32,000 nucleotides of DNA from Mucisphaera calidilacus (GCF_007748075.1 NZ_CP036280.1:360001-392000); one strand, 5' to 3'. Shown: positions 3,009 through 32,000, numbered from the stretch's first letter. The notes: generated by a model not told the origin, from the sequence alone. Made by a program: numbers and translations.

Positions 3009-3128
3009 CAGAATTGCCTGAAATGCAAATATAGCCCAAAAGGCCAAGACACGGAACCCGTCGCGTCTATCATCGGTTCTGATGGTCCGGTGTTCATGGT
3101 GCTTTCTGGCCCTGTTGGTGGATCTGTT
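3009..3128. promoter_or_regulatory. Divergent promoter/operator region between the AraC-family regulator and the isomerase-like gene
   Basis: This 120-nt spacer lies between two divergently oriented starts. It is locally AT-richer (GAAATGCAAATATAGCCCAAAAGG). It also holds an imperfect direct repeat, GTTCTGATGGT ... GTTCATGGTG, at about 3076-3105. No binding site is proven. Confidence 0.4.
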
Positions 3129-4857: not shown

Positions 4858-5149
4858 AGAGGTTTGGGACGGGTTGGCGAGAGGGAACTGGTCCGGGCCA
4901 GTGAGGGAGTCGCCATGTACGGTGATGAGACTGGTCTGGATCTGACTTGGAGAAGTGCATCTACTGGAAAAGGCATCCACCTGCATTGGGCGAGGGTTCG
5001 TCTGTCCGCATCGATCTGTGCGGGTGAGGGTGTCGGCTCGTGTCTGCTCACGGGTTGATGTAGGTGCAGCGCGTTGTTCCTAAGAGCCGCGTGGAGCGCG
5101 GTGTTTGGAGTCTGTCGTGATCAATTCATGGTGGCGTAGAAGGGGACGT

Positions 5150-20100: not shown

Positions 20101-23100
20101 CGACGGCAACGACACGCTCTCCGGCGGCTCGGGCGTCAACACGCTCATCGGCAACAGCGGCGACGACCGACTCACCGGCGGCGACCAAGCCGATGTCATC
20201 GACGGCGGCACCGGCGTCGACACGCTCAACGGCGGGGCCGGTATCGAGACTTATATCTTCGGCGACGGCTTCGGTGAGGACCGCTTCCAGGACACCTCCG
20301 ACGCCAGCATCCTCGACTTCTCCGCGCTCTCGGACGACATGGACGTTCGCATCACCGAGAGCCTGGTTCAGATCGCCACTGATTCCGAAGAGCTGCGTAT
20401 CAGCCGCCCGAATATCAGCACGATCATCCTCGGTTCGGGCAACGACAACATCAGGCTCAGCGAGCTCGCTGAGGGAACGCTCATGCTTGAGGACACCGGC
20501 GGCGCCAATACCTACACCCTCGAGATGCAGGCCCAGACCAACAACAAGGGCGACGCCATCGTCCAGATCATCGACAGCGATGATCAGCACGACGAGCTGA
20601 TTCTCAACAATCTCGTCGGCATCAATCCCGACGACGTCGGCGACGACGTCATCTATATCAACAACATGGAGATTGAGAGCGGACGCCAGTTCGTCCGGTT
20701 CGACAACAGCCTCGAGCTGATCACCATGAACGTCGTCGACTCCTCGATCGACGACACCGCCACCACCACCGACTTCGCCTCCGACCTCACGATCGACTCG
20801 AACCACGGCGGCGGAGCGATCATTGGCCAGTCGGGGCTCTACGTCAACGCACGCAACCTGACGGTGCTCTCCAGCCTGGACGGGCGTGATTTCGTCTTTG
20901 ATGTCGAGACCGATTTCGTTCTGGAGGGCAACGTCCACGCCACCGGCGAGTTCGATGTTGCTGCCAATACGGTCGGCACGCTGTCAACGCTCGGCGAGGT
21001 GGCCTACAACATCGACGCCAACGACATGGACTGGCACATCCGGGTCAGCGACGTCAACGTCACCGGCAACCTCAACGCCATCAACAACGGTCGCATCGCG
21101 ATCACCGCCGACAGCACGGACACCGGCGCGGGCGAAGAGGCCAACATCACCCTCCACAACGACGTCACCAGCGGCTCGGGCGACAACGCCGACCAGCTCG
21201 GCGGCGGCGAGTTGGAGTTCATCGCCTCCGGCGACATCACCCTCGAGAACCAGCCCGCCTTCCTTGGTGCCGGCTCCCACCTCATTCTCGCGGCCGACAA
21301 CATCTTCAACGATGACGCGCCTGACAACCGCATCGTCACCACCGTCGGCGGCATCACCGTCCTCACCCGCGACGAGGGAGCTGTCAGCGGCAGCGAGATC
21401 ATCATCCGCGAGACCGACGACCTTGTTGTCTATGGTCTGGACATCGCCGATAACGGCGCACTCAACCCGGTCGGTCTCTCTTCTGCGCATGGCGAGATCG
21501 ACGTCCGACTCGCCGCCGTCGACGCGCGCCTGACGCTCGACTCCGGCAGCATCGTGACTCGTGACCCCGGCCTCGATATCACCCTGACCGCCGACGACTT
21601 CGACTTCCTCCCGGCACCCGACGCACGCTCTGACGAGCCGGACCGCGCGATCGGCGGCATCATCGGCACGGGCGACCTCATCATCCGCGCCACGAACGCT
21701 TCGCGCTTTGTCATGGGCACCGCGGCCGAGGCCCCCGAGGGCAACGACTGGACCGACATCGCCGCCGACTTCCCTGACTTCACCAACTACCCGGGTCACG
21801 TAGGCGGCAACTTCACCGGCGAGGGTCTTGAGGCCACCTACGACGAGGACGGCTCGCTCTTCACGGATACCGTTCACCTCTCCACGCGCGACCTCTCCGC
21901 GATTGCGGACGGTTTCAGCCTGATCACGATCGGCGAGGACGTCGGCGACACGAACCCGACCTACGAGATGATCTTCGGCGATGCCATGGACGCCCAGGTC
22001 GTCAAGGACACGGGTCTCGACCGCGTCCGGGACTCGTCCTTCCGCGACGACGTCATCCTCAACGCCGAGCGCATCTTCATCGAGGGCGAGGTCGAGGCCA
22101 TCGCGCCGCTCGGCCAGTCCGCGATTCTGTTCGACGTCAACACCGACCGGCTGCACATCAAGTCGAAGAACATCAACAACCCGCTCGGCGGCACGGACTC
22201 GGGTATCACCGGCGACCTGCTCAACCTGCTCGGTGTTCGCAACCGCATGATTGTCGACGGCTGGGTCCGCACCGACGGCGACATCATGGTCAACATCCAG
22301 GGCGACGGCGAGGATTATGCGTCGCCGATGATGAGCGACGTTGCGTATCTCGACCCGAAGCGACTCAACAACTTCATCCAGGGTGTCGCGGGCACTCTCG
22401 AGACCAACGCCGACGGCGGCGTCATCGAGATCATCACGAAGAACTCCGTTGTCCTCGAAGGACGCAGCTTCGTCAACGGCACCGGCTCGCGCATCACCAT
22501 CACGCCTGGCACCTTCTTCGAGCTCGTCCAGATCGCCGGTTCGATCCAGGCGCCCGACGCGGAGGCTCTCGTCGAGATCAGCGCGCCCGAGGCCGTGTAC
22601 ATCAACGGCGAGATCCTCGCGGGTGCTGCCTATGACGGCGGCGTCAAGCGACTGACGGGCGTCGGGGCCGACGTCGTCATCGACACACCCCACGAGCTCC
22701 GCATCTTCGGCGCGATCACCTCCAGCGACGTCCTCGAACTCACCGCCGGAACCGATCAGGACTACAACCAGCGCGACCCCGAGGACGCCTCCATCCACCT
22801 CACCGGTCAGCTCACCTTCCTCGGCGACAACAGCCTCCTCCGACTCGAAGGTCCCGACGACATCCTCATCGAGGGCAGCATCTTCGGCCGAGGCGACAAC
22901 TCCGGCCTCCTCATCGACTCTCAGCAGCGGGTCAAGTTCGCCACCTCGTTCGTCGAGGTTGAGGACGGCATCGACATCTACGGCCGCGGCCAGACCGTCG
23001 ACCTCGAGACCGGCGAACTGAGCTCCGTCTACATCGCGCCTACCGCGGTTATCACCTCTTTCGATGCCGGCAGCGACATCAACATCACGGGCGCTAACGA

Positions 23101-26100
23101 CGTCGACGTCCTCGGCACCGTCGTCGCAGGCGGTTCCATCGGTCTCACCGGCGTCACCTGGTCCGGGCCTGACTCACACGCCACCGTGACCGCCGGCGAG
23201 CAAGTCGTCATCGACTCCGGCATCCTGGCCAGCGACACTGTCACCATCATCGGCGGGGCGGCCAGCGCCGACGACGTCAGTCTCGATCCCGACAACGCCG
23301 GTCTCCCGGTGAATGATCAGCGGCGTGTCAGCGTCATCGTCACCACCGCGGGCGGCATCACCGCAGCCGGACGCACCTCCGACAACACACCGGGCGAAAT
23401 CAACATCTACGGCCAGTCCGGCGTCGAGATGATGGGTCACCTCTACGCGGGTGCCAACCGATCTCTCCTCTTCGACACCCAGGGCAACCTCATCCGTGAG
23501 GAGATCGACTGGTCCGGCAGCGTCGGTGGCAACGTCAATATTGAGTCGCCGGCTGAGGTCTTCATCGGCGGCTTCGCCGAGAACCTCAACAACCAGGTCC
23601 AGCTTGGCGCGAACGTCAACCTCCAGATCGATACCACCGGCAACGGCGTCTCCAACGGCTCGGTCGGCGTCAACGCCGCCGTCACCGCCAGCAACCAGAG
23701 CCTCAGCCAGCTACGCGACGACGTCGCCACCCCGCTCGCCTCCGCCTTCGGGTCCGACGTCGAGGTCATTGTCCGCGACAACAAGCTCGTCTTCACTTCC
23801 GCCGACCCCTTCACCATCCTCAGCAGCTCGTCCAACAAGGACCTGCTCGGCCTCGGTGGGGGCAACCTCGTTGCCTCCGAGATCATCGCCATCGCCGGCA
23901 CGACCGCCGACGCGGCACCCGCCGGCTTCGACTTCTCTGCCGGCTCCGACGTTGTCCTTCGTTTTAACGACGGTAACGGCGACGCGCTCGGCGAGGTCAC
24001 CATTGCCGCCGCCGACACCGCCGGCCTCACGACACTCTCCGAGCTCGCCGACCTCGTTCGCCAGACCGTGCGTGACGTCGAGGATCTCCGCGATATCAAC
24101 GTCACCACCGAAAGCGGCTCGATCCGCTTCACCAGCTTCTACGACTTCCAGATCGACCAGTCCTCCGTCAACGCCGACACCCTCGGCTTCACCACCGTCG
24201 CAGCGGCCACCGTCGCCTCCACCCGCGACGCCTCCACCTACGAGGTCACCGCCGCCAACGCGCTCTTCGGCGACGTCGTCGTCACCGGCGGCTACATCGC
24301 CGCCAGCACCGAGGTCAACCTCCGCAACATCGACACCGCCGAACACCCCTACGCAGGCGGCGACACGGGCGTCTGGATCGAGGCCTCCAGCGAGATCTCC
24401 ACCAACGACGACTTCAGCACCGTCAACATCGACGCGAAGAACGATGCCCTCATCGAGGGTCATATCATCGCGGGCGGTGAGTTCGAGACCATCCGCGACG
24501 CCCAGACCGGTGCCTTCATCGGCACGCGCCTGATCGACTTCGGGCTCGACGCCGCCAACACTGAGATCCGCATCGAGGCCGAGAAGCAGGTCCGCATCGG
24601 CACCGTCCTCCGGGCCGGCGGACTCATCGAAGTCATCGGCGGCGACCCCGGCGAGGACGACCCCGATGACCTCTTCGACTTCGGCAGCAGCAGCGTGCTC
24701 GTCTTCGGCTCAGCCGAGCTCGAGACCTGGGGCGAGAACAGCACCATCCTCCTCAAGGGCGCCAAGGACATCAGCGTCCTCACGCCGACCCACTTCCACC
24801 AGGTCGAGCCTGATACGTGGGCCAAGGGACCGGTCGCCACGATCGTTGCCGACGGCGAAGTACGGAACTTCGGCGTCCTCGCCTCCGACGTCGTCCTCGA
24901 GATGCGCCGCGGCAAGGGTCTCAGCGCGGTCACCGAGACCATCACCGTCAGCGCCGTCGACGCCGGCACCGACCTCGCTCTCTTCAACCACGTCCAGGCC
25001 GCCTTCGACAGCAGCACCGAGTTCCAGGACGTCTTCGTCAACCGCATCGGCCGACACATCATCTTCGAAGCGCCCTACGACTTCGAGATCCTCCCCGAGT
25101 CCACCAACCTCGACCTGCTCGGCCTCGAGACCGCGCGATCCTCCATCGTCTTCTACCAGCCTGCCGAGATCGCCGGCACCGACGACCTCGCCACCACCGG
25201 CCGACTCGTCTCCGATGTCACTCTTGACCTAGAGCTCGAGGACGGCCTCGGCGGGACGATCACCGGCACCGTCGATATCCTCGCCTCCGCCACGACCGCG
25301 AACAGCACCGTCGCTGACCTAATCGCCGACATCAACAACGCGCTCGACGCCTCGGCCTTCGGAGCCATCAACGTCATCGCACGCGACAACCGTCTCGTCT
25401 TCCAGACCGACGACCTCGACTTCTCCATCACTTCATCCTCGACCAACGTCAACCAGCTCGGCCTCCGCGGCGTCTGGGACACCGTCGAGCTCCGCGAGGA
25501 AGCCACCCTTACCGGCTCCGACAGTCTGCCGACCACAGGCGTGCTGCCCCGCGACCTCGTCCTGGTCATCCGTATCGACGCCACCGACGTCGACGACACC
25601 CTCCTCGGCGCCATCATCCTGACCCCCGCCGACACAGCCGGCAACACCACCCAGCAGGACCTCGTCGACGACCTCAACGCCAAACTCGCGGCCACCGACA
25701 TCCCGCGCTACGAGACCCAGCTCACCTTCGCCGACTACCTCACCGCCACACTCGACAACGGTCACGTCGTCATCACCGGCACCGAGGCCTTCCGCCTCCG
25801 CACCGCCTCGCAGAACGAGACCCTCCTCGGCTACGACGCCCCCGTCGACCTGCCCGCCACCGAGATCTTCTACGACGCCATCCTCACCGCCGACACCACC
25901 CCGCCCAGCCCCGTCCTCAGCTCCCCCGTCACACTCGAGCTCGTCATCGACCGCTTCGGCGTCATCAGCAACGAGACCCTCACCGTCACGCCCGACGCCA
26001 CCAACGCCACCACACAGGACCTCGTCGACGACATCAACACCGAGCTGGTCCTCCTCGGCATCAACGACCTCGAAGCCCGCGACAACGCCGGCACCATCGA

Positions 26101-29100
26101 GTTCGTCGCCCACAACGACTTCACCATCGAGCAGACCTCCACCAACGCCAACCTCCTCGGCCTGACCACGGTCCACGGCGGAGCCGACGTCAGCGCCACC
26201 CGCGCCGACTCCATCCACCAGCTCACCGCCGGCAACGCCCTCTGGTCCACCGGTGTCCTCGCCGAAGACGTCACCCTCAACCTCACCACCACCGACTCCG
26301 ACGACAACGTCGTCAACACCACCGTCACCATCGCCCGCTCCGCCACCGACGGGACCGACGGCAACACCCGGAACACCACCCACGACGACCTCGCCGACGA
26401 CGTCACCGACGCCCTCGCCGCCGCCGGGCTCGACATCACCGCCCGCGTCGATACCGGCAGCCTCGTCCTCGCCAGCGACACGCTCGACATCACCGTCCTC
26501 GGCACAAGCAGCTCCTCCGACCTCCTCGGCCTCGCCGACGCCTTCAACGGGATCGACGAAACATCCGTCCGCCCGCCCTCCGTCTACGAGCTCACCACCG
26601 AGACCACCGCCACCACCGGCGTCCTCGCCGACAACGTCACACTCGACCTCGTCATCGCCCTCGAAGACCCCAACCAGCAGACCATCCAGTCCCTCGAATC
26701 CAACGACGGCTGGGAGATCCTCACCGGCCAGATCGACCCCGACCTGCCCGAGATCGCCAGCCGCACCATCGACAACGTCGTCAGCGCCAGCGTCACCATC
26801 TTCCGCGACGACACGCTCACCAACGCCACGCTCGACGACATCGCCGACGACATCAACGAAGCCCTTATCCGCAGCGAGCTCCGCGACTTCACCGCCTCCG
26901 TCGAATCCGGACGCATCCTCATCAGCAGCGGCCGAGCCTTCGCCCTCCAGCTCACCTCCGAGAACGCCAACCTCCTCGGCCTCACCGCGATCGCCGACCC
27001 CGAAACCGAGGCCACCCGCGACGACCCGACCAACCGTGTCGAGCCGCGCGACACGATGATCAACGGACGCCTCGCCGAGGACATCACCCTCCGCTTCGCG
27101 CTCGACGACGGCCTCGGCGGCACCTGGAACGGCAACGTGATCATCGCCGCCGCCGACACCAACGGCATCACACCCGGCACCGCGGCCAACAACGGCGTCA
27201 GCGACCTCATCATCGACATCAACAAGGCTCTTGCTGACACCGCCATCCCCGGCCACCCGGGCAACCTCATGTTCGGCGATGTCGTCCAGGCCGTCGCCCT
27301 CGCCGGAGATGCCGCCGCCTCCGACGACACCCCGCCCGCACCGAGCATCATGTTCGTCAGCGACGCCGGCTTCACCATCGACAGCCAGGCCGCCGACGCC
27401 CTCAGCCAACTCGGATTCAACACCGGCACGCTCGGCTCCGCCGCTTCTACGCCCGGCTATGAGGTCACCGCCGAGAGCGTGCTGCCCGGTGGTCACCAGA
27501 CCGCTGGCGACGTCACCCTCACCCTGCTCATCGACGTCGGCCTCACCAGCACCGTCACCATCCCGCAGGCCGACACCCTCACCAACGCCAGCCTCGGCGA
27601 ACTCCTCGCCGATATCCGCGCCGCGCTCCAGCAGGGCGAGGTTCTCAACACCGGCGACAGCTCGCCCACAGGCTCCTACGCCAGCCAGTACATCCAAGCC
27701 ACCGCCCTCAACGGCACTCTGACTCTTGCGAGTGACGTTGCCTTCACCATCGACGCCAGCGCATCGACCAACGCTCAGCATCTGGGCCTCGACGCCGTCT
27801 CCCTCGGGACCGACGCCGTTGCTACTCAGCCGGCCCCGACCGAGAACCTCGTCGCCGACACCCCGCTGCCCGCCAGCTACGCCCTCACCGACGACGTCAC
27901 CCTCGAACTCCGCCTCAAGACCTCCGACACCACCGAGTCCAGCCACACCGTCACCATCACCGCCGCCGCGGCCAGCGACAACACCTCCGTCGACGACCTG
28001 ATCACCGACATCAACAACGCCCTCGTCGCCGCCGTCGGCGACACCTCCGTCCAGGTCAGCCTCGACGACGCCGGCAAGATCATCTTCACCGGCACCGAGG
28101 CCTTCCGCATCAACTACGCCTCCGAGAACGAGTCGCTCCTCGGCTTCGCACCGATGCCCAACGACGGCATCGTCGCCAACAAGTCCTCCGACACCGGCGA
28201 GCTCCCCGAAGACGTCACCTTCGTCGTCTGGGTCAACCTCGGCACACAGAAGATCGTCGGTGAGGTCACCGTGCCCGCCGAGATCACGCTCACCAACAAC
28301 AGCAACGAGGGCATCGGCGACCTCGTCGACGACATCCAGGACGCTCTCAACGGCGCCGTCACCTTCGATCCGGGCGACGGCCTCCGCAACGGACTCAGTG
28401 GCGGCAGCTACTACGACGCACAGACCGGCGACCCGTTCGACTTCGCCGACTTCGCCGACAACCCCGTTACCGTCGGTGGCGACGCCGACCCGATCATCAA
28501 GGTCAAGCTCCTCCGCGGAAAACTCCTCTTCACCAGCCAGTACGAGTTCGAGATCCTCCCCACCTGGAACACCGCTCCCTTCGACAGCGACCCGCTCGTC
28601 AGCAGCAACATCGAGCTCCTCGGACTCGACGCCGTCGCCGAGGGCCTCACCGCCGAGACCACACGTCCCTACAACCTCATTGCTACAGCGGCCGGCTCAC
28701 AGGTCGTCTTCGAGACCGAGTCCAACGCCGGCGAGCTCTACATCGCGGGTGGCGTCCGCTCCGACAGCCAGATCGTCATGCAGGGCGTCAACGGCGGCGA
28801 CTTCACCTCCTTCGACTTCGACTGGTCCGGCATCATGGAGACCACCAACGGTCCCATCATGCTCGACCTCGGAACCAACGGACACCTCCGCGGCGACCTG
28901 ATCGCCGGCGGCGCCAACGGCGACGTCATCATCACCGCCGACGACACTCTCGAGATCAGCGGCATCATCGTCGCCGAACGCAACATCGACATCGACGCCG
29001 GCTTTGTCGCAGCGGCCTCGGGCGACCCGGTCAGCGTCACCATCAACAAGACGGCATGGCTCCGCACCAACGGCGGCCCGCTCGATCCGCAGGCCATTAC

Positions 29101-32000
29101 CATCGACGGACGCAACAGCGTCCTCATCGACGGTCCGATCGGTGCCCTCCAGACCGACGACGCACGCACCACCGCCGATGTCGCCATCACCTCCGCCACC
29201 GCCGACGTCACCCTCACTGAGGAGTCCGGCTGGATCGAGACCGGCGGACGCATCGTCATCACCGGCGACACGCTCTACATCGATGGCGTCATCAAGAACG
29301 CCGGCGACGCCGACAGCTCCGTCCCCAACCCGGCCGACCCGAGCACCTATGAGGTCGTTCTCGACGCCGCCATCAACACCATCGTCACCGGCGACATCGA
29401 TGCCTTCGGCTCCGTCCTGATCGACAACCCCGTCGCCTTCGTCCTCCAGGGCTCCATCGCCGCCGGCGAGGTCGAGACCTTCGTCTTCCCGACCGAGGCA
29501 CGAGGCTTGCTCACGAATCCGGGTGAAGAAGTCCGTATCATCGCGCCGGGCATCACCATCGCCAGCCAGACCGCCACCGTCGACGAAGAACTCATCGACC
29601 TCGACGGTGACGAGACACCCGACCTCGCGCCGGGCGACACCTACCTCCTCGGCTCGCAGGTCTCCGCCAGCGGGGCGGTCGTCCTCAACGCTGGCATCGA
29701 CGACATCATCATCGAGTTTGCCTCCGAGCTTCTTGCCTGGGACGACGACGCACAGATTCACCTGGTCGCCGACGGGGTCTCGATTCTTGGTGCCCTCTAC
29801 GCCGGCGCGGCTCGTGAACGCAACACCGACAACCCCGACCTGCTCTGGAACGGCGAGAACGCGGGCGTCGACATCGACGCACAGGTCATGGTCGGCCTCG
29901 GCGGAGCCGGGACCGCCACCGACGCCGACGTCTTCCTCGGCAACGCCGCCGCCCAGGGCGACCCCCTCGACCGCGCCGGCAGCATCACCGCCACCGGGCC
30001 CGTCACCATCGACGTCGACGCGGCCAACGGCATCTTCGCACTCACCGAGACCAGCTTCATCCGTGGCGACGCCAACCTCGTCGCAGGGGCCAGCCCCGTT
30101 GCCATGAGCAGCCTCGACATCAACTCAGGCGACATCGCCGACATCGCGGGCGTCATCGACTTCGCCGACGACAACTCGACCGTCAGCATCGAGACCACCA
30201 ACGGCATCATCAACGTCTCGGGCAGCATTGATGCCGGCGACACCCTCACCCTCAACGGCAACACCTCAGGCAACGTCACCACGCCCGTCAGCGTGCAGAT
30301 CACCAAACTCGTCTACGAGACCGTCAAGCAGACATTCCCCACCGACGACGGTGGGAACGCTCAGTTCACCATCGACCAATCCGGCAACCCGATCGACGAC
30401 TTCGGCTTCCTCCTCAGCATCAACCTCGGCGGTCAGGTTGAGCTCGAACTCGATGGCGTCACACCCAAGCGGCAGCTTGACGCTGAGAACAACCCGATCC
30501 TCGGCGACGGCCCTGTCTACCTGACCATCGACGGCGACGACAACCCCGTCACCGTTGACAAGCAAGGGCGCAAGCTCGAACTCCAGGGCAACGGCGACTA
30601 CAACCTCGTCGACGAAGCCGGGCAACTCCTCGACGAGGCCGGTTTCGTCATCGACATCGACGGCGTGCGCCTCGACGCCAACGGCGACCGGATCAACGTC
30701 TTCGGCTACCGCGTCGATGCCAACGGCAACTACCTCAACAGCACCGGTCAGACCGTCAACCTCTACGGCCAGCGTGTCGACGCCAACGGCAACCTGCTTG
30801 AGAACGACGGTGCCGACAACTGGTCCGGCAACCTCGTCAACAGCGCCGGCTACCGCGTCAACAGCGACGGCCTCCTCCTCAACGCTTCCGACGGCCTGCT
30901 CAACGGCGTCGGAGCTATCCGTGGTGCTGTCGATATTGGCGGAACCGACTACCTCACCGACCCGTACGGCAACCTCATCGACGACAACGGCGAACTCCTC
31001 GACGAGGCCGGCTTCCTCATCAATGAACGCGGCCAGCGCATCAACACCGACGGCACGCCGCTCTCGCCCATCGACACGCCGGTGCTCGGCGGCAACCGAG
31101 TCGCCGTCGACCCGCTGACTCTCGAGGACCCTGTCGCCGGCAACGGCACCATCGACGGCGGCGCACCCGTCACCGGAGCAGCGCCCAAGGGCACCACCGG
31201 GCACGTCGTTGTCGACCTGCCCATCCGCCAGAGCGGTGGCGTTGTCAACACCTCCGCACCCGACAGCCAGATCATCATCACCGGCACGACGGATATCGAG
31301 ATCAGCGGCATGGTCGGCCGGGCCTACATGCAGGCCGAGGAAACCGCCGTCGACACCGGCAGCGTCAGCATCACCTCGACCACCGGCGAGGCTTACATCC
31401 GCACCGATGCGCTCGTCAACGCTCAGGACGACATCAGCATCACCGCCGAGAATGTCTGGGCCCTCGACGAGTCGGTCGTCATCACTCGTGCTGACCATAG
31501 CACCACCAGCCTGGTTGCTACCGGCTCCGGCGATGACGGCAAGATCTTCATCGCACGCAGCGAGATCTACTTCTTCCGCGCCCTCGTCTCCGCTGCAGGG
31601 CAGGTCCACCTCCAGGGTAAGGACATCAACGTCTGGGGCACCATCACGGTCACCGGCGACTACGCCGATCCCGCCGAGACCACGCGATCCGCCGCGCACC
31701 TCGAAGCCGACCGGCACATCCTCGTCCGTGGCGAGATCCTCAGCTCCGGCCACGCCGACCTCGACGCCGGCCTCGCTGATATCACCGGTGCCATCGTTGT
31801 CGCCGCCGAGGGCAAGATCGCCGCCGGCTTCGAGTCTGACATCCCGGCCGACATCACGCTCGATACGCCCGGCGAGGTTTCGATCCAGTCGTACGACGAC
31901 GAAGCCAACGACGACCTCCAGTTTGCGGCGCCCTTCGTCTCCTACGAGCCCACCTTCGTCGACGTCGTCACCGGCTTCCGCCGCGTCGAGGACGGCTTCA
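5150..32000 (+). CDS. Giant LEPR-XLL-type secreted/surface repeat protein, 3'-truncated by the window edge (at least 8,950 codons in the window)
   Basis: Frame 2 has a stop at 5081-5083 and then no in-frame stop up to nt 32000 in my manual end-to-end translation. No frame-2 ORF fragment appears in the track after 5150, which fits an unterminated ORF. ATG 5150 is preceded by AAGGGGA (5140-5146). The translation is coherent throughout, with LEPRLLLSA, GGxGxD repeats and several internally consistent repeat families. The start codon is less certain; the alternative is ATG 5183. Confidence 0.95.
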   Translation, partial: MRRRVLRSLRRMLGLKRNRPSLAQRVEQLQTGARLRLRCFLDRALLRPLAGRTTTASALLDPKFESLEPRLLLSADAPDWSLFDEDQHGVAAESQVSEPGTEDLPASARSYSLLAASGSVGGTLFAQGSGDADGVAGVSVDVEDLRERMEALRDDWLGSLDQSDVFNVEVPFIDASLADVVDLGKAFDVAVLQKIAWGGLETLEDFADELSRAGALAEGQAVSYDPASQQVTIPIDFEIALHEVDLRDLSRLGLVDIDRMVDEGLVQLGDYVDPDDLLDHGYIDVAGMIGLGLISTGDVADWGAVDQQAIIDAGLIGVAGLAQHNLVDGSDQVDLDALLDSGLVTLGDLVEKELVTYASITGGLGFVQELNLLATNIADYGLDLSSQLQSVDLIDLSAAFAADANAFTDLIAAELIGVADLAIDTLALDDLIAGGVTTLQELVDEGILTADDLSDTLRLEVVELLDQTTLTLSGLIDAGVIRIESFRSDASVTVLDLVGDGVATLRQLVDAGLITPDDFGPITIPESELVNSGLLTQFQLDFNALVTAGQVALSDLVEGDFVDLLDLIEEGLLDVHDLATSSLDARALLESGLADLRTLADNALLQADALLDGVWASAHQLADDGVLTLSELVSSALVDAEDMIRDAVDIRALLDAGVTDLLSLAQNDVLLPAQVALDAVLSSDVATEATDLFNRISTAGGVIGPGSIIDLDDLLQNFPVGLSDLVYFGLVTQDVLPDLGSVDRSALLATKAIDESVLRRKGAEGAVNEGLLTLGQLSDLGVIDRANLKDLAPIEIDAFELTAQAVAQADADGYIIHGSGATLAGLLARPDVTLERLLDLGLVATTDLGDLGTILLSDLFVLGTLSRADILASNVLDAELLDGLIAVDDTVAIADLTTGGLASLGDLVDAGLLGLADFNLVLPFHTLTENDLLASGLITPARLEGSGLLLTGGTPEQRFVRTHELITQGYAELSDLLDAGLIDASRLLTTSLYVTLLQDAGVLAMNALEAHGLGQNGDVDVEALVATGLVTLDQLVAVGLIAEEDFYDDNLVLLRNLVDAALVTAADLAADQTLDLDDLLDTNVVGRQYVDDAGLVDEVAGVSDRILITDLLGDPNVTLASLIESGVLSYRDFANIAFAQEVLEATTLEGSPLFVEGQFDDLVRLGSVALGDLLGSILFDNSLDAYVDAEFLDRFDFNDVSLDAAALEGAFAVDVPDDRGPTIALYDLLTTLPAVTLQSLIQNGFLSDADLVDPAKPLDIVDLEASDLFETGDLLNFVSQRSVYLHDVAEDVNLATLAEAGLLVAGDLIVNRAGELAEFVDEGLLGKQSFRDVAIPVATITDNTTLSSTDLNNQGIVDAGTVSLHDLIDAEIIALDQLITDGVVTVADLVADVTSRDVDDVLDADALERAILEDAGVLTGAENDRVRLNGSSSLLSENLATLLALTTQRVVNPSHFDAGASVDKDDLVTAGLLTEVDLIEAGLVSAAELSVTSIGLKQLDQTGALPLDRLTSIDDYIDLGVVTQPQVDGVDTLDKADLIASGLVNETELLQAGLLGEQIELSDLLTSGLVTTEQLLLNSVTYSDGYVATQDLVDSGLTSVAALEGASLTGTQIDVADLINSGLVTLLDLVDNGIDLDDLLAASLSGGTPTEQQVIDAGLFDPSVDIAELVSSGLLSVQDLIDGGVLPATIESAVLVGLNLVTGTQLVAASLITHGQLDSQTFPSVSLTSLLAALRDGGDAGSTLINLTDLLKAGFFTADQPRADLISAGIASDIAMTGAGLVGASVDVQDLVQAGLTTFESLDLGGFLTTGVDYRTVVGAPFAAATGVTIIDDDLVGAGLLWKRVDPDALDALGLATLADLASAGLIVDPLISRAELDELGSVDVDILRLPPVDLARLLATDLVDDRGEVDLDALLDTPVAGGDGLVLVNVADLARLGLIDWTDVNGHDVNYFGLSNRSLDLAGDFGLELVGMTTEATADLRATASAGFDLVIDLNGLDNASGIVWLLEDATATAQLAFNVIDLDVAARLGFIGVTLADVSGLESGVAVDLTRTITADLDGNDATTNDRLVELDLLLGASLDEHLVGSVSGSAAATLRGIKVNTGIGGIPVGHGASVILTVADLESAKGEGYYELALNDLPGIFRVHELLKIEDLMSMLIRTQDYVRKALDQLPFWATDPQSPLYELTKDVKIPVINKSPGELLELIGQLDDAVTEVQRFLYDPENDAQRLVAFVMDALGLDIEADSDKFSVYMEGNILRLRLNLIEDFSEDIPLDFDLSALAGAISGDTAEIAGIDSLVSTEGSGTIALKGFAEFQIDAGIDLGPRADGQAPDYFLYDYDAGLEQGTRVEAGFKVLGSGINLDFEIFDAIGVSSTGALILMDADNNLTTNPELSDPDDRSDFVRVVFALDQQSGTGVTDDGLYRFDETLLGDNVVVEVNGGFAILLPIEINIFGTVIDFPGEPLFIRTNPAYITTDGGVFESNDGLAEVFRHLFGTTDPTPGPHDPILVNAPDIAGALGNLANSKIRELLEQLAGLIEGLKQQLLDANLFDLAIPGTNQSIDDLFGAGNDNGLAGVDTATGVEAFLDIDTYVLEYLKTVTWVGAGSVADGTLTANDVFNGLATFLTNHWVPTLPGIGAAVGGGFITITSSGDQLSLDVNGNYTFNKDLLWDLDSQLGDTGLSLTGDLNFNAAFNALLDLDFGVNLATGATEFNFNEFTFDGSFDSTSLSPSLDYNGISTVSVNNGTVDLDLGGRVYTDGSGDFRFDPSMAGDGSSLENSIEIELPLELLSNPVGTIGFADTDFYDGQLDPGFTADLSGLTGILDNAAYIALDLLGESVDDLRGTLLTQYDQQGDPVPGTGSFLDENIAGTDTSIARVLGLDSLLNLGDYIRHYLRPQLPESGTFERDLTIPLGYLDGGSVDPRTNWYGDASGNNVPTIGGLLQYLEDNWLPTLGGGAGGFSWQLIGSDAVEIVFTANSPFTRTVGVDLGADAENLGLELEAEANFELDIQQDVMATLLFDWGADTTSFTLDHYDFSIDADVNDLFAGASFGPLDISVGQEAPDGLKGSASLDLAGRLSFNNAVELARTDLLFEAGDLAFRLTPELDPTNNLEIDLPLFASLAGVDLGSVEQGSIPRVGLAGSIFPNAAGADPLRFTSENLEELVDFSDFNIGTLIAMIQGTINWLEEISNADFLSTEIPFTDKTLGDVLDFATVFSDQVLSKIDFERIRTVQDFIDAFTRAGILPEDANVVYDPATQTLRLPSLFDFNLSDFGLRDLQRNGEVTFANLIDIGALDPETVLSKGTLLDNMLGLTLIQFREFVRWELVPEDAFDGTGITVADLESLGLIEAGALNGTGLVAAGQIAVEDLIGTDAVNVSLLDLIDADLLGSADLTLPLGDRRVPYIDLVESRLLNVNELTALGVTLYDRDGNTTSTPSDAETVDLQDLIDLARFSLTELLDMGFVGRSEFNDATTITVAALEAAELIAENALDGEPIVTAGEVTLGDLLAAESPVSVALADLIENGLVGRGDMTLGDITLGNLSIDGFDLHDFVDLGFLDQNTVSTFVYDRFGLEDVPLDLGLDLGGVLELSTTATADLVAEIEAGLDWVIDLDGLNGTEGLTILVENAHIAGRAWFDVNDLEMGAKLGFLGLTAGGAGSGSGIHLFAEASATLDADGNLDTTDDRTFELFDLFTGSLFDNLVLDFDGYAEAALNNFQVDGSIPGLNEAALAGQEISIAIPSIVNQTGTEVLKSGEKTPAEIQELKDLERIVIILPDFDDTFNFTDLDFASIITMIRQGVELLDQALTDVPFYRESIPVVNRSLEDVLDFINDLTQKLEEAANNPAAVLQDVEEVIEDALGIGDDALDLFLDGDALRIDLNWQPLAYEEMLPFAFDLGGMKDLSGDSNASELSGINSLVDANGAVSLYAGLEANLQFGVDFSEVDTGGLGALEFFFVDYDDNGTPGNTADDSGTRVAFEARLLADDLDLTINPFDIGVADGFAVLDGDGDPLTDDMAAFTLFLDQDGNAVPDDGRFVIGSESLGDNLDYAIVGGFAVELPLQVFGTTLGTPLGVATNPVYGTDGLKELFLHLTNDSGAGASDPIVLTYPDLTGALGGDFGLLGILNDPTYILDGVDLALGGVQEVVGSGFAQDLPLIGDELGEAATFIRDLRQGFLADLRAKLSGPGQAINFIREAMWDAFGPTGLDILLDQSGDGQLAIEDIEVAWYDVDGNKIKDWIVGEAVPESGFVYDSSGVFVGDGVAIPAGGFQVSDDTDAIQFDLDLGGTVFGTGVDIPLEIDLPGFGLDVDGGFGVAMDWSYDFGMGLSLNDGFYLATNDKANDEDPELEVEIGAFLDGKPLDNTVVTPFYAEGTLLFFKVTATDTDRDEAKPGFQPSGVFGFLELDAIGDDTTGRLTLNHFLSSPIEDVFELDMGIEAALNLELGLELDGVEGLPRLVADLVLTWDWTLQEGASEPDIGLYDLGLEVGSFVSEVLKPITENISDVLSPFEPVVDVLLEPIPGLDAFIEDPNLLGLINFVASLTGNPEIPPQFFYAVDSMLDIVAQVNALLGTDGRILLGDITGLGTTSVESTQAESSIPAGLQSFLDQIRLDGAGGTPANSGFSSGGSSTERSGFEIVEYLTDIGNWASLITGGDAILFTYELPYLEWGMSFSQQIAQIPLGPIQIVVSAVGSFEVFADLGFGYDTYGIRKAIETGNAWQAFDGFFVADYALSGPNKGQEKDEFGFSAEIGLEAALWLLLVEAGIGGVIGFEAGLDLQDVVDDGRIRASELATMWTYTGNGAPGGLANLVNLSARAFFEAYAFVDVGISIPFVGKIMSRVVDWTIADVTIFELEYNAPKVEPILATISGDQLILNTGKRAGDREYLDFTDGGERFTVTGDSSSITVKYDEWEQTYDGSFTTLIADGGAGDDVFNASGLMGVNVEFDGGVGNDALTSGSGTATMTGGAGDDRLIATNATGVVYLEGGDGNDTLSGGSGVNTLIGNSGDDRLTGGDQADVIDGGTGVDTLNGGAGIETYIFGDGFGEDRFQDTSDASILDFSALSDDMDVRITESLVQIATDSEELRISRPNISTIILGSGNDNIRLSELAEGTLMLEDTGGANTYTLEMQAQTNNKGDAIVQIIDSDDQHDELILNNLVGINPDDVGDDVIYINNMEIESGRQFVRFDNSLELITMNVVDSSIDDTATTTDFASDLTIDSNHGGGAIIGQSGLYVNARNLTVLSSLDGRDFVFDVETDFVLEGNVHATGEFDVAANTVGTLSTLGEVAYNIDANDMDWHIRVSDVNVTGNLNAINNGRIAITADSTDTGAGEEANITLHNDVTSGSGDNADQLGGGELEFIASGDITLENQPAFLGAGSHLILAADNIFNDDAPDNRIVTTVGGITVLTRDEGAVSGSEIIIRETDDLVVYGLDIADNGALNPVGLSSAHGEIDVRLAAVDARLTLDSGSIVTRDPGLDITLTADDFDFLPAPDARSDEPDRAIGGIIGTGDLIIRATNASRFVMGTAAEAPEGNDWTDIAADFPDFTNYPGHVGGNFTGEGLEATYDEDGSLFTDTVHLSTRDLSAIADGFSLITIGEDVGDTNPTYEMIFGDAMDAQVVKDTGLDRVRDSSFRDDVILNAERIFIEGEVEAIAPLGQSAILFDVNTDRLHIKSKNINNPLGGTDSGITGDLLNLLGVRNRMIVDGWVRTDGDIMVNIQGDGEDYASPMMSDVAYLDPKRLNNFIQGVAGTLETNADGGVIEIITKNSVVLEGRSFVNGTGSRITITPGTFFELVQIAGSIQAPDAEALVEISAPEAVYINGEILAGAAYDGGVKRLTGVGADVVIDTPHELRIFGAITSSDVLELTAGTDQDYNQRDPEDASIHLTGQLTFLGDNSLLRLEGPDDILIEGSIFGRGDNSGLLIDSQQRVKFATSFVEVEDGIDIYGRGQTVDLETGELSSVYIAPTAVITSFDAGSDINITGANDVDVLGTVVAGGSIGLTGVTWSGPDSHATVTAGEQVVIDSGILASDTVTIIGGAASADDVSLDPDNAGLPVNDQRRVSVIVTTAGGITAAGRTSDNTPGEINIYGQSGVEMMGHLYAGANRSLLFDTQGNLIREEIDWSGSVGGNVNIESPAEVFIGGFAENLNNQVQLGANVNLQIDTTGNGVSNGSVGVNAAVTASNQSLSQLRDDVATPLASAFGSDVEVIVRDNKLVFTSADPFTILSSSSNKDLLGLGGGNLVASEIIAIAGTTADAAPAGFDFSAGSDVVLRFNDGNGDALGEVTIAAADTAGLTTLSELADLVRQTVRDVEDLRDINVTTESGSIRFTSFYDFQIDQSSVNADTLGFTTVAAATVASTRDASTYEVTAANALFGDVVVTGGYIAASTEVNLRNIDTAEHPYAGGDTGVWIEASSEISTNDDFSTVNIDAKNDALIEGHIIAGGEFETIRDAQTGAFIGTRLIDFGLDAANTEIRIEAEKQVRIGTVLRAGGLIEVIGGDPGEDDPDDLFDFGSSSVLVFGSAELETWGENSTILLKGAKDISVLTPTHFHQVEPDTWAKGPVATIVADGEVRNFGVLASDVVLEMRRGKGLSAVTETITVSAVDAGTDLALFNHVQAAFDSSTEFQDVFVNRIGRHIIFEAPYDFEILPESTNLDLLGLETARSSIVFYQPAEIAGTDDLATTGRLVSDVTLDLELEDGLGGTITGTVDILASATTANSTVADLIADINNALDASAFGAINVIARDNRLVFQTDDLDFSITSSSTNVNQLGLRGVWDTVELREEATLTGSDSLPTTGVLPRDLVLVIRIDATDVDDTLLGAIILTPADTAGNTTQQDLVDDLNAKLAATDIPRYETQLTFADYLTATLDNGHVVITGTEAFRLRTASQNETLLGYDAPVDLPATEIFYDAILTADTTPPSPVLSSPVTLELVIDRFGVISNETLTVTPDATNATTQDLVDDINTELVLLGINDLEARDNAGTIEFVAHNDFTIEQTSTNANLLGLTTVHGGADVSATRADSIHQLTAGNALWSTGVLAEDVTLNLTTTDSDDNVVNTTVTIARSATDGTDGNTRNTTHDDLADDVTDALAAAGLDITARVDTGSLVLASDTLDITVLGTSSSSDLLGLADAFNGIDETSVRPPSVYELTTETTATTGVLADNVTLDLVIALEDPNQQTIQSLESNDGWEILTGQIDPDLPEIASRTIDNVVSASVTIFRDDTLTNATLDDIADDINEALIRSELRDFTASVESGRILISSGRAFALQLTSENANLLGLTAIADPETEATRDDPTNRVEPRDTMINGRLAEDITLRFALDDGLGGTWNGNVIIAAADTNGITPGTAANNGVSDLIIDINKALADTAIPGHPGNLMFGDVVQAVALAGDAAASDDTPPAPSIMFVSDAGFTIDSQAADALSQLGFNTGTLGSAASTPGYEVTAESVLPGGHQTAGDVTLTLLIDVGLTSTVTIPQADTLTNASLGELLADIRAALQQGEVLNTGDSSPTGSYASQYIQATALNGTLTLASDVAFTIDASASTNAQHLGLDAVSLGTDAVATQPAPTENLVADTPLPASYALTDDVTLELRLKTSDTTESSHTVTITAAAASDNTSVDDLITDINNALVAAVGDTSVQVSLDDAGKIIFTGTEAFRINYASENESLLGFAPMPNDGIVANKSSDTGELPEDVTFVVWVNLGTQKIVGEVTVPAEITLTNNSNEGIGDLVDDIQDALNGAVTFDPGDGLRNGLSGGSYYDAQTGDPFDFADFADNPVTVGGDADPIIKVKLLRGKLLFTSQYEFEILPTWNTAPFDSDPLVSSNIELLGLDAVAEGLTAETTRPYNLIATAAGSQVVFETESNAGELYIAGGVRSDSQIVMQGVNGGDFTSFDFDWSGIMETTNGPIMLDLGTNGHLRGDLIAGGANGDVIITADDTLEISGIIVAERNIDIDAGFVAAASGDPVSVTINKTAWLRTNGGPLDPQAITIDGRNSVLIDGPIGALQTDDARTTADVAITSATADVTLTEESGWIETGGRIVITGDTLYIDGVIKNAGDADSSVPNPADPSTYEVVLDAAINTIVTGDIDAFGSVLIDNPVAFVLQGSIAAGEVETFVFPTEARGLLTNPGEEVRIIAPGITIASQTATVDEELIDLDGDETPDLAPGDTYLLGSQVSASGAVVLNAGIDDIIIEFASELLAWDDDAQIHLVADGVSILGALYAGAARERNTDNPDLLWNGENAGVDIDAQVMVGLGGAGTATDADVFLGNAAAQGDPLDRAGSITATGPVTIDVDAANGIFALTETSFIRGDANLVAGASPVAMSSLDINSGDIADIAGVIDFADDNSTVSIETTNGIINVSGSIDAGDTLTLNGNTSGNVTTPVSVQITKLVYETVKQTFPTDDGGNAQFTIDQSGNPIDDFGFLLSINLGGQVELELDGVTPKRQLDAENNPILGDGPVYLTIDGDDNPVTVDKQGRKLELQGNGDYNLVDEAGQLLDEAGFVIDIDGVRLDANGDRINVFGYRVDANGNYLNSTGQTVNLYGQRVDANGNLLENDGADNWSGNLVNSAGYRVNSDGLLLNASDGLLNGVGAIRGAVDIGGTDYLTDPYGNLIDDNGELLDEAGFLINERGQRINTDGTPLSPIDTPVLGGNRVAVDPLTLEDPVAGNGTIDGGAPVTGAAPKGTTGHVVVDLPIRQSGGVVNTSAPDSQIIITGTTDIEISGMVGRAYMQAEETAVDTGSVSITSTTGEAYIRTDALVNAQDDISITAENVWALDESVVITRADHSTTSLVATGSGDDGKIFIARSEIYFFRALVSAAGQVHLQGKDINVWGTITVTGDYADPAETTRSAAHLEADRHILVRGEILSSGHADLDAGLADITGAIVVAAEGKIAAGFESDIPADITLDTPGEVSIQSYDDEANDDLQFAAPFVSYEPTFVDVVTGFRRVEDGF
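5348..5374 (+). other. LEPRxLL ('LEPR-XLL') N-terminal motif
   Basis: Residues 67-75 read LEPRLLLSA, preceded by an Arg-rich leader (MRRRVLRSLRRMLGLKRNRPS...). This motif is characteristic of large planctomycete secreted proteins. Confidence 0.8.
5654..5879 (+). repeat. Junction element copy 1 (precedes repeat array 1)
   Basis: EVPFIDASLADVVDLGKAFDVAVLQKI..LEDFADELSRAGALAEGQAVSYDPASQQVTIPIDFEI aligns by eye with copy 2 at 14741-14956. Confidence 0.7.
5880..10985 (+). repeat. Array 1 of degenerate short 'DL(V/I)D(A)G(L/V)(I/V)Txx(D)L' repeats (~1,700 aa)
   Basis: Examples are LRQLVDAGLITPDDF, LSGLIDAGVIRIESF, LQELVDEGILTADDL, LSDLLDAGLIDASRL, LGDLVDAGLLGLADF and VQDLIDGGVLPATIE. The array starts at DLSRLGLVDID and ends at DLARLGLIDWTD. 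Cores are spaced 11 aa apart when adjacent and usually ~20-25 aa apart. Confidence 0.85.
11020..12715 (+). repeat. Module A conserved core (paralogous to 15860-17505)
   Basis: LELVGMTTEATADLRATASAGFDLVIDLNGLDNASGIVWLLEDA...VIDLDVAARLGFIGVTL, IPVINKSPGELLELIGQL, NGGFAILLPIEINIFGT...FIRTNPAY and DPILVNAPDIAGALG align in the same order with module A'. Confidence 0.75.
14741..14956 (+). repeat. Junction element copy 2 (precedes repeat array 2)
   Basis: EIPFTDKTLGDVLDFATVFSDQVLSKI..VQDFIDAFTRAGILPEDANVVYDPATQTLRLPSLFDF aligns with copy 1. Confidence 0.7.
14957..15840 (+). repeat. Array 2 of the same 'DxGL' short repeats (~295 aa)
   Basis: Examples are ADLESLGLIEAGAL, VEDLIGTDAV, LLDLIDADLLGSADL, LQDLIDLARFSLTELLDMGFV, LADLIENGLVGRGDM and HDFVDLGFLDQNTV. 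Confidence 0.75.
15860..17505 (+). repeat. Module A' conserved core (paralogous to 11020-12715)
   Basis: VLELSTTATADLVAEIEAGLDWVIDLDGLNGTEGLTILVENA...VNDLEMGAKLGFLGLTA, IPVVNRSLEDVLDFINDL, VGGFAVELPLQVFGT...VATNPVY and DPIVLTYPDLTGALG. Confidence 0.75.
19910..20260 (+). repeat. RTX / hemolysin-type calcium-binding nonapeptide repeats (GGxGxD)
   Basis: The run reads GGAGDDVFN..GGVGNDALT SGSGTATMT GGAGDDRLI..GGDGNDTLS GGSGVNTLI GNSGDDRLT GGDQADVID GGTGVDTLN GGAGIETYIFGDGFG. It is followed by the usual ...ILDFSALSDD tail. Confidence 0.9.
20770..23640 (+). other. Beta-helix-like tract I (irregular ~20-25 aa turns rich in G/N/D-I-T-L/V)
   Basis: Recurrent strings include GRIAITADS, ANITLHNDVTSG, GDITLENQ, GGITVLTRD, SEIIIRETD, LDITLTADD, GDLIIRATN, SDINITGAN and GEINIYGQSG. 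These are typical of parallel beta-helix adhesin or passenger regions. I assigned no family. Confidence 0.45.
23665..28627 (+). repeat. About 12 tandem copies of an unrecognised ~110-160 aa domain ending in S-x-N-x-x-LLG(L/F/Y)
   Basis: The (L/T/Q/H)LG(L/F/Y) anchors start at nt 23843, 24179, 25115, 25454, 25823, 26153, 26522, 26972, 27407, 27779, 28136 and 28616. Each unit also carries ..G.L..DVTL.L.., then ..VTI.AADT..N(T/A)(T/S)..DL(V/I)DDIN.AL.., then ..G.L.F....F.I. A beta-helix-like insert splits the array at ~24240-24850. Confidence 0.8.
28650..30300 (+). other. Beta-helix-like tract II
   Basis: Recurrent strings include GDVIITADDTLEISGIIVAERNIDIDAG, AITIDGRNSVLIDG, ADVAITSATADVTLTE, GRIVITGDTLYIDG, GPVTIDVDAANG and STVSIETTNGIINVSGSIDAGDTLTLNG. 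Confidence 0.45.
30335..31075 (+). repeat. Short YD-like beta-hairpin repeats ((Y/F)-x-V-D-x-x-G-x-L)
   Basis: The run reads LVDEAGQLLDEAGFVIDIDGVRLDANGDRINVFGYRVDANGNYLNSTGQTVNLYGQRVDANGNLLEN...YRVNSDGLLLNASDGLL...LTDPYGNLIDDNGELLDEAGFLINERGQRINTDGTPL. It only loosely resembles the YD/RHS or cell-wall-binding repeat logic. Confidence 0.4.
31230..32000 (+). other. Beta-helix-like tract III, running off the window
   Basis: Recurrent strings include SQIIITGTTDIEISG, GSVSITSTTGEAYIRTD, DDISITAENVWALD, GKIFIARSEIYF, GQVHLQGKDINVWGTITVTGD and RHILVRGEILSSG. Confidence 0.4.

Follow-up and report, generated by a model that had tools for sequence, protein, structure and literature searches.

A twelve-fold array of alpha/beta domains in a giant protein of Mucisphaera calidilacus, probably remote relatives of the flagellin/FliD IN-motif domain

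What is the domain that recurs twelve times in a giant protein of Mucisphaera calidilacus, and what might twelve copies of it in a row do? Both questions are raised by a stretch of 32,000 nucleotides (nt) of this planctomycete (GCF_007748075.1, NZ_CP036280.1:360001-392000; here called the window, with positions counted from its first letter), most of which is a single open reading frame (ORF). An initial annotation, made from the sequence alone, had described the array as tandem copies of a small alpha/beta domain that could not be placed in a named family. The twelve units are true repeats, each an alpha/beta domain of about 110 residues that folds on its own. What we rate as new here is the occurrence of what is probably an unmodelled divergent branch of the flagellin/FliD IN-domain fold as a twelve-fold array in a non-flagellar giant protein.

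The twelve units, each ending in S-x-N-x-x-L-L-G-[LFY], were all found at the coordinates given in the initial annotation and in one stop-free frame, with the array spanning residues 6181-7848 (residue 1 of the giant protein is encoded at nt 5084). The anchor positions, nt 23843 to 28616, were exact: L-G-[LFY] lies at residues 6255, 6367, 6679, 6792, 6915, 7025, 7148, 7298, 7443, 7567, 7686 and 7846, the nucleotide positions having been counted from the residue preceding each L-G. Likewise, the six helices quoted as examples were present verbatim. The spacing of 330-480 nt holds for all pairs of neighbouring anchors except the second and third, which are 936 nt apart because about 200 non-repeat residues intervene. 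The first unit, which had been called partial, indeed lacks the N-terminal linker and strand, but nothing else; its core is complete from the 'DVTL.L' strand (positions 29-115 of the profile).

The units align with conserved columns, as had been expected of them. L and G of the C-terminal motif were invariant, and L63, F96 and S102 were conserved to at least 90% in the 12-unit alignment. A profile hidden Markov model (HMM) built from eleven units found the twelfth with expectation values (E) of 1.9e-14 to 8.4e-29 and 40-87 bits in the leave-one-out test. The HMM of all 12 units detected exactly 12 copies in the 8972 residues of the frame, with all other stretches below 0 bits. The mean column identity among the units was about 27% and Tandem Repeats Finder detected no DNA-level tandem repeat with a period of 330-480 nt. 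Thus the copies are old and diverged, and a recent tandem duplication at the DNA level was ruled out.

A scan of single proteins in GTDB yielded one relative from a metagenome-assembled genome of a Mucisphaera sp. (Planctomycetota, Phycisphaerae). This ortholog, whose locus also ends inside the gene, aligns to residues 3253-8972 with 75.6% identity and keeps the 12 units in the same order, together with the segment between units 2 and 3. Over the array the identity was 70% with 2 gap positions in 1666 residues, and the ratio of nonsynonymous to synonymous substitution rates (dN/dS) of 0.34 showed moderate purifying selection, while the N-terminal half of the protein had a dN/dS of 0.10-0.15. 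Identity to the ortholog was 76% in columns conserved among the paralogs, 63% in paralog-variable columns and 78-79% in the insertions of units 8 and 12.

The fold was predicted by AlphaFold2 for two units. Unit 6, modelled from an alignment of the twelve paralogs only, had a mean predicted local distance difference test score (pLDDT) of 93.3 and a predicted template modelling score (pTM) of 0.81; for unit 11, modelled with 76 family sequences, the values were 94.7 and 0.81. Both models have the predicted order beta-beta-beta-alpha-beta-beta-beta-short-alpha. From the N- to the C-terminus the predicted elements are a short strand 'YEVTA', a beta hairpin 'DVTL.L' / 'VTI.A', a capping-box loop 'T..N.[ST]..D', a helix of 14-16 residues 'DL..DIN.AL', a three-strand meander and a one-turn C-terminal helix 'N..LLGL'. 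In these single-unit models the inter-unit strand 'Y-x-V-x-A' was grouped with the following unit. The small alpha/beta domain proposed in the initial annotation is borne out by the models. Immunoglobulin-like (Ig), cadherin or Big repeats were rejected on account of their different fold, and no model of these families matches the array.

No model of Pfam-A or NCBIfam reached its threshold on the array region, on any single unit or on 76 family members. Hence the unit HMM matched no existing family significantly at curated thresholds; such a match had been named in the initial annotation as an outcome that would overturn it. Searches of PDB sequences with the 12-unit and 76-sequence profiles returned chance-level matches only, e.g. 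BMAL1 and DnaK. A word-indexed homolog search gave a single match with the unit profile and none at E <= 1e-5 with the 76-sequence profile. An exhaustive profile search of 1.84 billion representative proteins retrieved 624 proteins at E <= 1e-3, 215 at E <= 1e-10 and 22 at E <= 1e-30, each with 1 to 18 matched stretches. The family is therefore large and captured by no curated model. Of its best 150 matches, 38 are at least 4000 residues long; an LExRxLL motif lies near the N-terminus in 36, and three or more GGxGxD motifs occur in 49. The proteins stem from Planctomycetota, Verrucomicrobiota, Burkholderiales, Terriglobia, Maridesulfovibrio frigidus and Desulfoluna and, where their sources name them, are called 'Ca2+-binding RTX toxin-like protein', 'calcium-binding protein', 'LEPR-XLL domain-containing protein' or 'hypothetical'.

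The consensus of 490 instances is P..G.L..DA.F.L...VTV.A..T..N.S..DL..DIN.AL..AG...V.A...GG[RK]L.L....F.I...S.NA..LGL, with N62 conserved to 92%, L68 to 95%, D71 to 81% and A75 to 80%. Throughout the family, conservation falls on the strands, the helix and the capping-box loop. Because many relatives match only to about position 98 of the profile, the S-x-N-x-x-L-L-G-L tail is a feature of a sub-branch. [ST]64..D67 forms the helix capping box. The asparagine of column 62, two residues ahead of the helix N-cap, is part of an N-x-S/T triplet in 9 of the 12 units of the window, and the equivalent in E. coli FliD is N-S-S; judged from sequence, the triplet could be purely structural or a glycosylation sequon.

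Another sub-branch (P0102, P0104, P0115, P0110, P0141, P0089-P0091, P0100, P0127, P0132 and P0070) has a single copy of the domain in a strongly conserved non-repeat context, which reads '...GS..L.TWR..S.INL.APG.I.ILAP.HT.EI.A' before the domain and '...Y-A-I-x-A..GS.V..G...GPNGKLYIAGKV' after it, and a conserved insertion of about 25 residues after the helix. In these single-copy relatives the LLG[FL] tail is followed by a 'Y-[AT]-[ILV]-x-A' strand. The context is shared by nt 24620-25126 of the window, which include unit 3, and by the exits from units 2 and 12 (the latter at 28628-28760); the same strand is found there where no unit comes next.

The motif D-L-x-D-D-I-N-x-A-L of the helix resembles the 'flagellin hook IN motif', and therefore a link to the IN-motif domain was tested in four ways. 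Foldseek searches of the PDB with the model of unit 6 gave FliD cap or D2-D3 structures (5H5V, 5H5W, 5H5T, 9M6H, 9M6I, 9M67, 9U4R) as 14 of the 15 top matches and a V. cholerae flagellin as the fifteenth. Probabilities were 0.57-0.98 (0.85-0.98 for the top ten) with E of 0.025-0.24 and template modelling (TM) scores of 0.39-0.54. Unit 11 gave FlaA, FlaD and FlaB of V. cholerae, FliC of P. aeruginosa and the FliD cap as top matches with probabilities of 0.84-1.00, a best E of 5e-3, a TM score of 0.56 and a root mean square deviation of 3.1 Å over 106 columns. Among predicted viral structures (BFVD) the best matches were extra domains of tail-sheath and structural proteins. In a relaxed Pfam scan of 76 family members Flagellin_IN (PF07196) was the most frequent family with 8 matches and a best E of 0.0015, followed by a family with 3; fragments of E. 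coli FliD D3 carry the PF07196 label in the precomputed annotation.

Profile-profile alignment by hhalign of the family with an alignment of 12 FliD-D3 sequences scored 26.4 over 65 columns with P 2.7e-4. The aligned span begins in the second hairpin strand, takes in the helix, where I-N is placed on I-N, and ends with the terminal L-G-aromatic. As controls, 60 block-shuffled family profiles scored 11.8 ± 1.9 with a maximum of 18.4, and the reversed profile scored 9.6. With the single E. coli FliD sequence the alignment was weak (P 0.023) and in the correct place. Conversely, an HMM of FliD-D3 was run against 150 homologs plus the protein of the window, together 362,000 residues. Its best segments lay inside the envelopes of the family domain in 16 of 20 and 70 of 100 cases, while these envelopes cover 14.8% of the residues. 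By eye, 'N-S-S-L-S-G-I-R-D-A-I-N' of E. coli FliD and the consensus 'N-t-S-l-d-D-L-v-a-D-I-N' agree in N, S, L, [LI] and I-N with the same spacing. Over the 490 instances the I-N pair is represented by I/V/L in 97% at column 72 and by N in 62% and Q in 20% at column 73.

Several tests, each below conventional thresholds, thus converge on one target and remote homology is the best reading. We consider it probable that the family and the outer domain with the IN motif in flagellin and FliD (PF07196; FliD D3) are remotely related. The failure of the initial annotation to place the domain in a named family accordingly stands as far as Pfam and NCBIfam thresholds are concerned, and is amended by this remote placement. 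Because remote placement is possible while a match at curated thresholds is absent, we speak of an unmodelled divergent branch of a known domain kind and not of a wholly unknown domain.

What may the array do? Outer domains of flagellin, FliD and phage sheaths are exposed to solvent and can be removed without harm to the core machine. Flagella remain functional when D2 or D3 of FliD is deleted; these domains are not needed for capping and have been suggested to act in adhesion (PMC8533109). A similar layout as an excursion is seen in the single-copy relatives, where the domain is flanked on either side by conserved non-repeat sequence. In the giant protein such an exposed, removable excursion domain would have been multiplied head-to-tail without spacers. 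By analogy, the array may form an extended, exposed stalk or display section of a putative secreted cell-surface protein and take a role like that of the tandem Ig-like repeats of RTX adhesins. Surfaces and insertions of individual units may add binding or calcium sites specific to that unit, as the well conserved insertions in units 8 and 12 would allow. On balance, we lean towards the combined view of genuine alpha/beta units that are remote IN-motif relatives and are arrayed as the exposed stalk or display section of a secreted surface protein.

Several observations weigh against this combined view. A literal I-N occurs in only 5 of the 12 units of the window, L-N in one, and V/I followed by a different residue in the others. 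The gathering threshold of PF07196 (22.7 bits) was missed by the best unit of the window with 11.1 bits and E 0.46, and by a family member (P0052) with 18.7 bits. All Foldseek E were above 1e-3 with TM scores of only about 0.5, the hhalign probability was 42% with a shallow FliD alignment (effective number of sequences, Neff, 3.3), and the search of PDB sequences with profiles found FliD only at E 1.4. Because the search with the family profile was topped by unrelated proteins such as DnaK, the sequence signal alone would not carry the claim of homology. As to the role, the window ends inside the gene, so that the C-terminus and any secretion genes lie beyond it, and the better preservation of the unit-specific insertions compared to the paralog-variable columns hints at more than passive spacing. 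Alternatively, the two-layer alpha/beta fold might have been invented independently and resemble FliD D3 and flagellin outer domains by convergence, including the helix-capping motif, in a new family without flagellar ties. In favor of this, every similarity score is below threshold down to the Pfam E of 0.0015, the N..S..D portion of the shared motif is a generic helix capping box, and the host protein has no Flagellin_N/C or FliD_N/C in its 8972 residues by a Pfam scan that detected E. coli FliD and FliC as controls at E 1e-22 to 1e-70. Yet, four different tests arrive at the same target among about 24,700 Pfam models and 350,000 PDB chains, the hhalign match extends beyond the helix to the L-G-aromatic tail with the same order of secondary structure, and the FliD-D3 HMM picks family domains about five times more often than chance. 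Thus we regard convergence as rather unlikely. An artefact, i.e. a pattern arising by chance or from composition in GC-rich DNA that is non-coding or read in the wrong frame, deserves hardly any credence. It is true that at 63-68% GC long ORFs occur on both strands, e.g. one of 837 residues on the minus strand at 25433-27946, but an artefact is ruled out by the stop-free run of 8972 codons, leave-one-out E down to 8.4e-29, a dN/dS of 0.34 with almost no indels, pLDDT above 93 and hundreds of homologs.

If the units are what we take them for, the array may still do more than extend the protein. They might mainly be ligand-binding modules, adhesive or glycan-binding, with the array as a multivalent platform and not as a spacer, which would be compatible with a stalk. 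Positions variable among the paralogs are still 63% identical between the orthologs, unit 12 with its conserved insertions has the lowest dN/dS of all units, and the head domains of FliD have been proposed to function in adhesion (PMC8533109). On the other hand, no binding site, lectin signature or conserved surface patch was identified in the units, the dN/dS of the array exceeds that of the N-terminal half, a copy number of 1 to 18 among relatives is expected of length modules, and the columns conserved in the whole family can be read as keeping the fold. Binding as the main task therefore appears doubtful, although it deserves to be kept in mind. Less probable still is self-assembly, in which the domains would join many giant-protein chains into a fibre, a sheath or a surface lattice, as the outer domains of flagellin make lateral contacts on the filament surface. 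All of the nearest structural relatives are found on the outer face of helical polymers, namely the flagellar filament, its cap and the phage tail sheath. However, the polymerising D0/D1 helices of flagellin and FliD are absent from the host and no polymerisation determinants are evident in it, while the same family contains proteins with a single copy. Self-assembly consequently seems improbable to us and the exposed stalk or display section remains the preferred view.

All units are encoded on the plus strand and each has features of its own. Unit 1 (23573-23854; HMM envelope residues 6164-6257) scored 80.8 bits with a leave-one-out E of 2.7e-19 and unit 2 (23855-24190) 97.7 bits with 1.8e-19. 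Unit 3 (24791-25126) reached 98.4 bits with the highest leave-one-out E of 1.9e-14 and is of the type seen as a single copy in other giant proteins. The following units scored 110.4 bits (unit 4, 25127-25465; E 1.7e-27), 105.0 bits (unit 5, 25466-25834; E 5e-23), 103.5 bits (unit 6, 25835-26164, one of the two modelled) and 96.6 bits (unit 7, 26165-26533; E 7.4e-23). Unit 8 (26534-26983; 105.4 bits) has a unit-specific insertion of about 35 residues past the second strand, which makes up most of the 37 residues outside the profile columns; these 37 are 78% identical in the ortholog. It is followed by unit 9 (26984-27418; 91.8 bits, E 2e-16), unit 10 (27419-27790; 97.6 bits, E 8.5e-22) and unit 11 (27791-28147; 114.5 bits), the other modelled unit. 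Unit 12 (28148-28627; 88.2 bits) carries acidic unit-specific insertions, with about 58 residues outside the profile columns, the largest insertion after the helix and 79% identity of the inserted residues in the ortholog. With 84% overall identity to the ortholog and a dN/dS of 0.19 it is the most conserved unit.

The non-repeat segment between units 2 and 3 (24191-24790, plus strand, residues 6370-6569, about 200 residues) begins with an orphan strand 'STYEVTAAN' and matches the unit HMM only weakly, at profile positions 6-25 (residues 6376-6395). It is 79% identical in the ortholog with a dN/dS of 0.22, and its C-terminal part resembles the conserved context of the single-copy relatives. 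After unit 12 a linker with the orphan strand 'RPYNLIATAAG' (28628-28708, plus strand) leads the chain from the array into the next non-repeat region; its 'Y-x-[VLI]-x-A' element also follows the domain in the single-copy relatives. The segment between units 2 and 3, with its abundance of glycine and alternating hydrophobic residues, and the flanks look beta-helix-like by eye, which stays an impression from sequence because the flanking non-repeat regions gave no matches to PDB sequences.

The gene that holds the array lies on the plus strand from its first ATG at nt 5150 to nt 31999 and comprises at least 8950 codons inside the window. The stop-free frame of 8972 codons opens at nt 5084 and leaves the window at its 3' end. 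The full length is more than 10,300 residues judged from the Mucisphaera ortholog, which runs 1387 residues further past the window end. An N-terminal LEPR-XLL motif (FESLEPRLLLSADAP; 5336-5380, plus strand, residues 85-99) matches NCBIfam NF012209 'LEPR-8K' with 25.1 bits (cutoff 17). It is followed by long, internally repeated N-terminal regions, a block of RTX calcium-binding nonapeptides on the plus strand (19871-20350; PF00353, 32.3 bits with a cutoff of 23), about 1000 unmatched residues, the array and more unmatched sequence. The RTX block, which also gives partial NCBIfam matches to RTX toxins and serralysin, sits in the middle of the protein and not near any visible C-terminus. In this very acidic host there are two cysteines among 8972 residues, none of them in the 12 units, which consist of 15.4% D+E, 4.2% K+R, 19.0% T+S and 11.4% A. 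Between nt 24000 and 30000 the coding strand has a GC skew of -0.20 to -0.33 and a positive AT skew. The skew and the spurious ORFs on the opposite strand fit the array's extreme codon usage, rich in Asp, Thr and Ala, better than they fit extra genes.

Other parts of the giant protein are repetitive as well. Its N-terminal third (nt 5612-11080 and 14699-15260; residues approximately 177-2000 and 3206-3392) consists of degenerate amphipathic repeats 'DL(V/I)D.GL(I/V)T...L', with 34% identity between residues 177-377 and 3206-3392 and 31% between residues 453-689 and 848-1093; a sub-threshold SHOCT match is the sole Pfam signal. A module of about 600 residues or more is present twice, at nt 10935-12709 and 15789-17494 (residues 1952-2542 and 3570-4137), with 30-33% identity and no family match. 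Beyond the array, short repeats rich in G, D and N ('D.NG.LL', 'VDANGN') are found at about nt 30620-30760, or more broadly at residues 8430-8660, with a sub-threshold match to DUF3659 (PF12396, E 0.0029).

Three genes precede the giant gene. An ORF of 244 residues (37-771, plus strand) matches no Pfam model and has at its C-terminus 'VPEPGAASLVAICLGTLWCRRK', similar to a PEP-CTERM sorting signal. It adjoins a gene for a DegT/DnrJ/EryC1 aminotransferase (744-2021, plus strand), and a gene for an AraC-family regulator lies on the minus strand at 2169-3047.

Bacterial surface giants of more than 5,000 residues are mostly unannotated, and in this one the domain accounts for about 1,650 residues. 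The same domain occurs in hundreds of 'calcium-binding', RTX-like and LEPR-XLL proteins across phyla, where curated models leave it unlabelled. It lends itself to a new family model, which might join Flagellin_IN in one clan. The data suggest a common stock of modules from which both non-flagellar giant surface proteins and the decorative outer domains of flagellar proteins and phage sheaths are drawn. One may go further, tentatively, and imagine a large ancient 'IN-LLGL' family outside flagella, sister to the outer domains of flagellin, FliD and phage sheath or even their reservoir, i.e. a mobile exposed module arrayed in giant LEPR-XLL/RTX proteins of at least five phyla, whose units would have conserved specific surfaces such as ligand or calcium sites in acidic insertions and N-x-S/T glycosylation. 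For planctomycete biology the array offers an epitope, or a target for deletion, by which to approach a protein with a probable part in shaping the cell surface. The findings change no established mechanism; their use is in annotation and domain evolution.

How does the array compare with known systems? Giant RTX adhesins of type I secretion systems (T1SS) such as LapA, MpIBP and SiiE are acidic and poor in cysteine and contain spacer-free runs of Ig-like (BIg) domains of about 100 residues. The copy number of these extenders varies among relatives and they are presumed to project distal parts from the cell. The M. calidilacus protein is likewise giant, acidic and poor in cysteine, with RTX repeats and a spacer-free run of domains in variable copy number. 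Unlike the adhesins, its repeat is alpha/beta and not an all-beta Ig sandwich, and the window, which ends inside the gene, shows neither a T1SS signal nor transporter genes. With the LEPR-XLL giants ('LEPR-8K', NF012209) the host shares the N-terminal motif, the RTX block and a length above 8000 residues. That family is defined only by an N-terminal motif of 24 positions, and the twelve-unit repeat is in none of its models. A Vibrio protein of about 8000 residues with LEPR-XLL, RTX and serralysin domains has been noted (PMC10868602). In the literature on LEPR-XLL, PF07595, Flagellin_IN and FliD D3 we found no description of this repeat in giant proteins, nor of the internal domains of LEPR-XLL proteins. 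Phage tail sheaths offer a further comparison, as the insertion domain of the phage XM1 sheath resembles FliD D3 (bioRxiv 10.1101/2021.12.18.469577). Such insertion domains (InD of Vibrio phage XM1 gp6) are single copies in a viral structural protein, and sequence similarity to them was not detected.

The closest comparison is with PF07196 itself, represented by D3 of E. coli FliD (5H5V/5H5W) and the outer domain of Vibrio and Sphingomonas flagellins. The order of hairpin, capping loop, I-N helix, three-strand meander and L-G-aromatic tail is shared by the modelled units, the motif N-x-S-L-x-x-[LI]-x-x-x-I-N is identically spaced, and both domains end in a hydrophobic residue, G and an aromatic residue or L. 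Both are excursions from a larger scaffold and both occur in repeats. While hook-associated proteins and flagellins contain one to five copies of the IN motif (PMC9751261), there are 12 tandem copies here and up to 18 matched stretches in relatives, in a host that is not flagellar but very acidic and similar to calcium-binding proteins. Furthermore, the Pfam model covers about 55 residues, whereas the family described here conserves about 90-115, with an extra N-terminal strand and the S-x-N-x-x-L-L-G-L tail.

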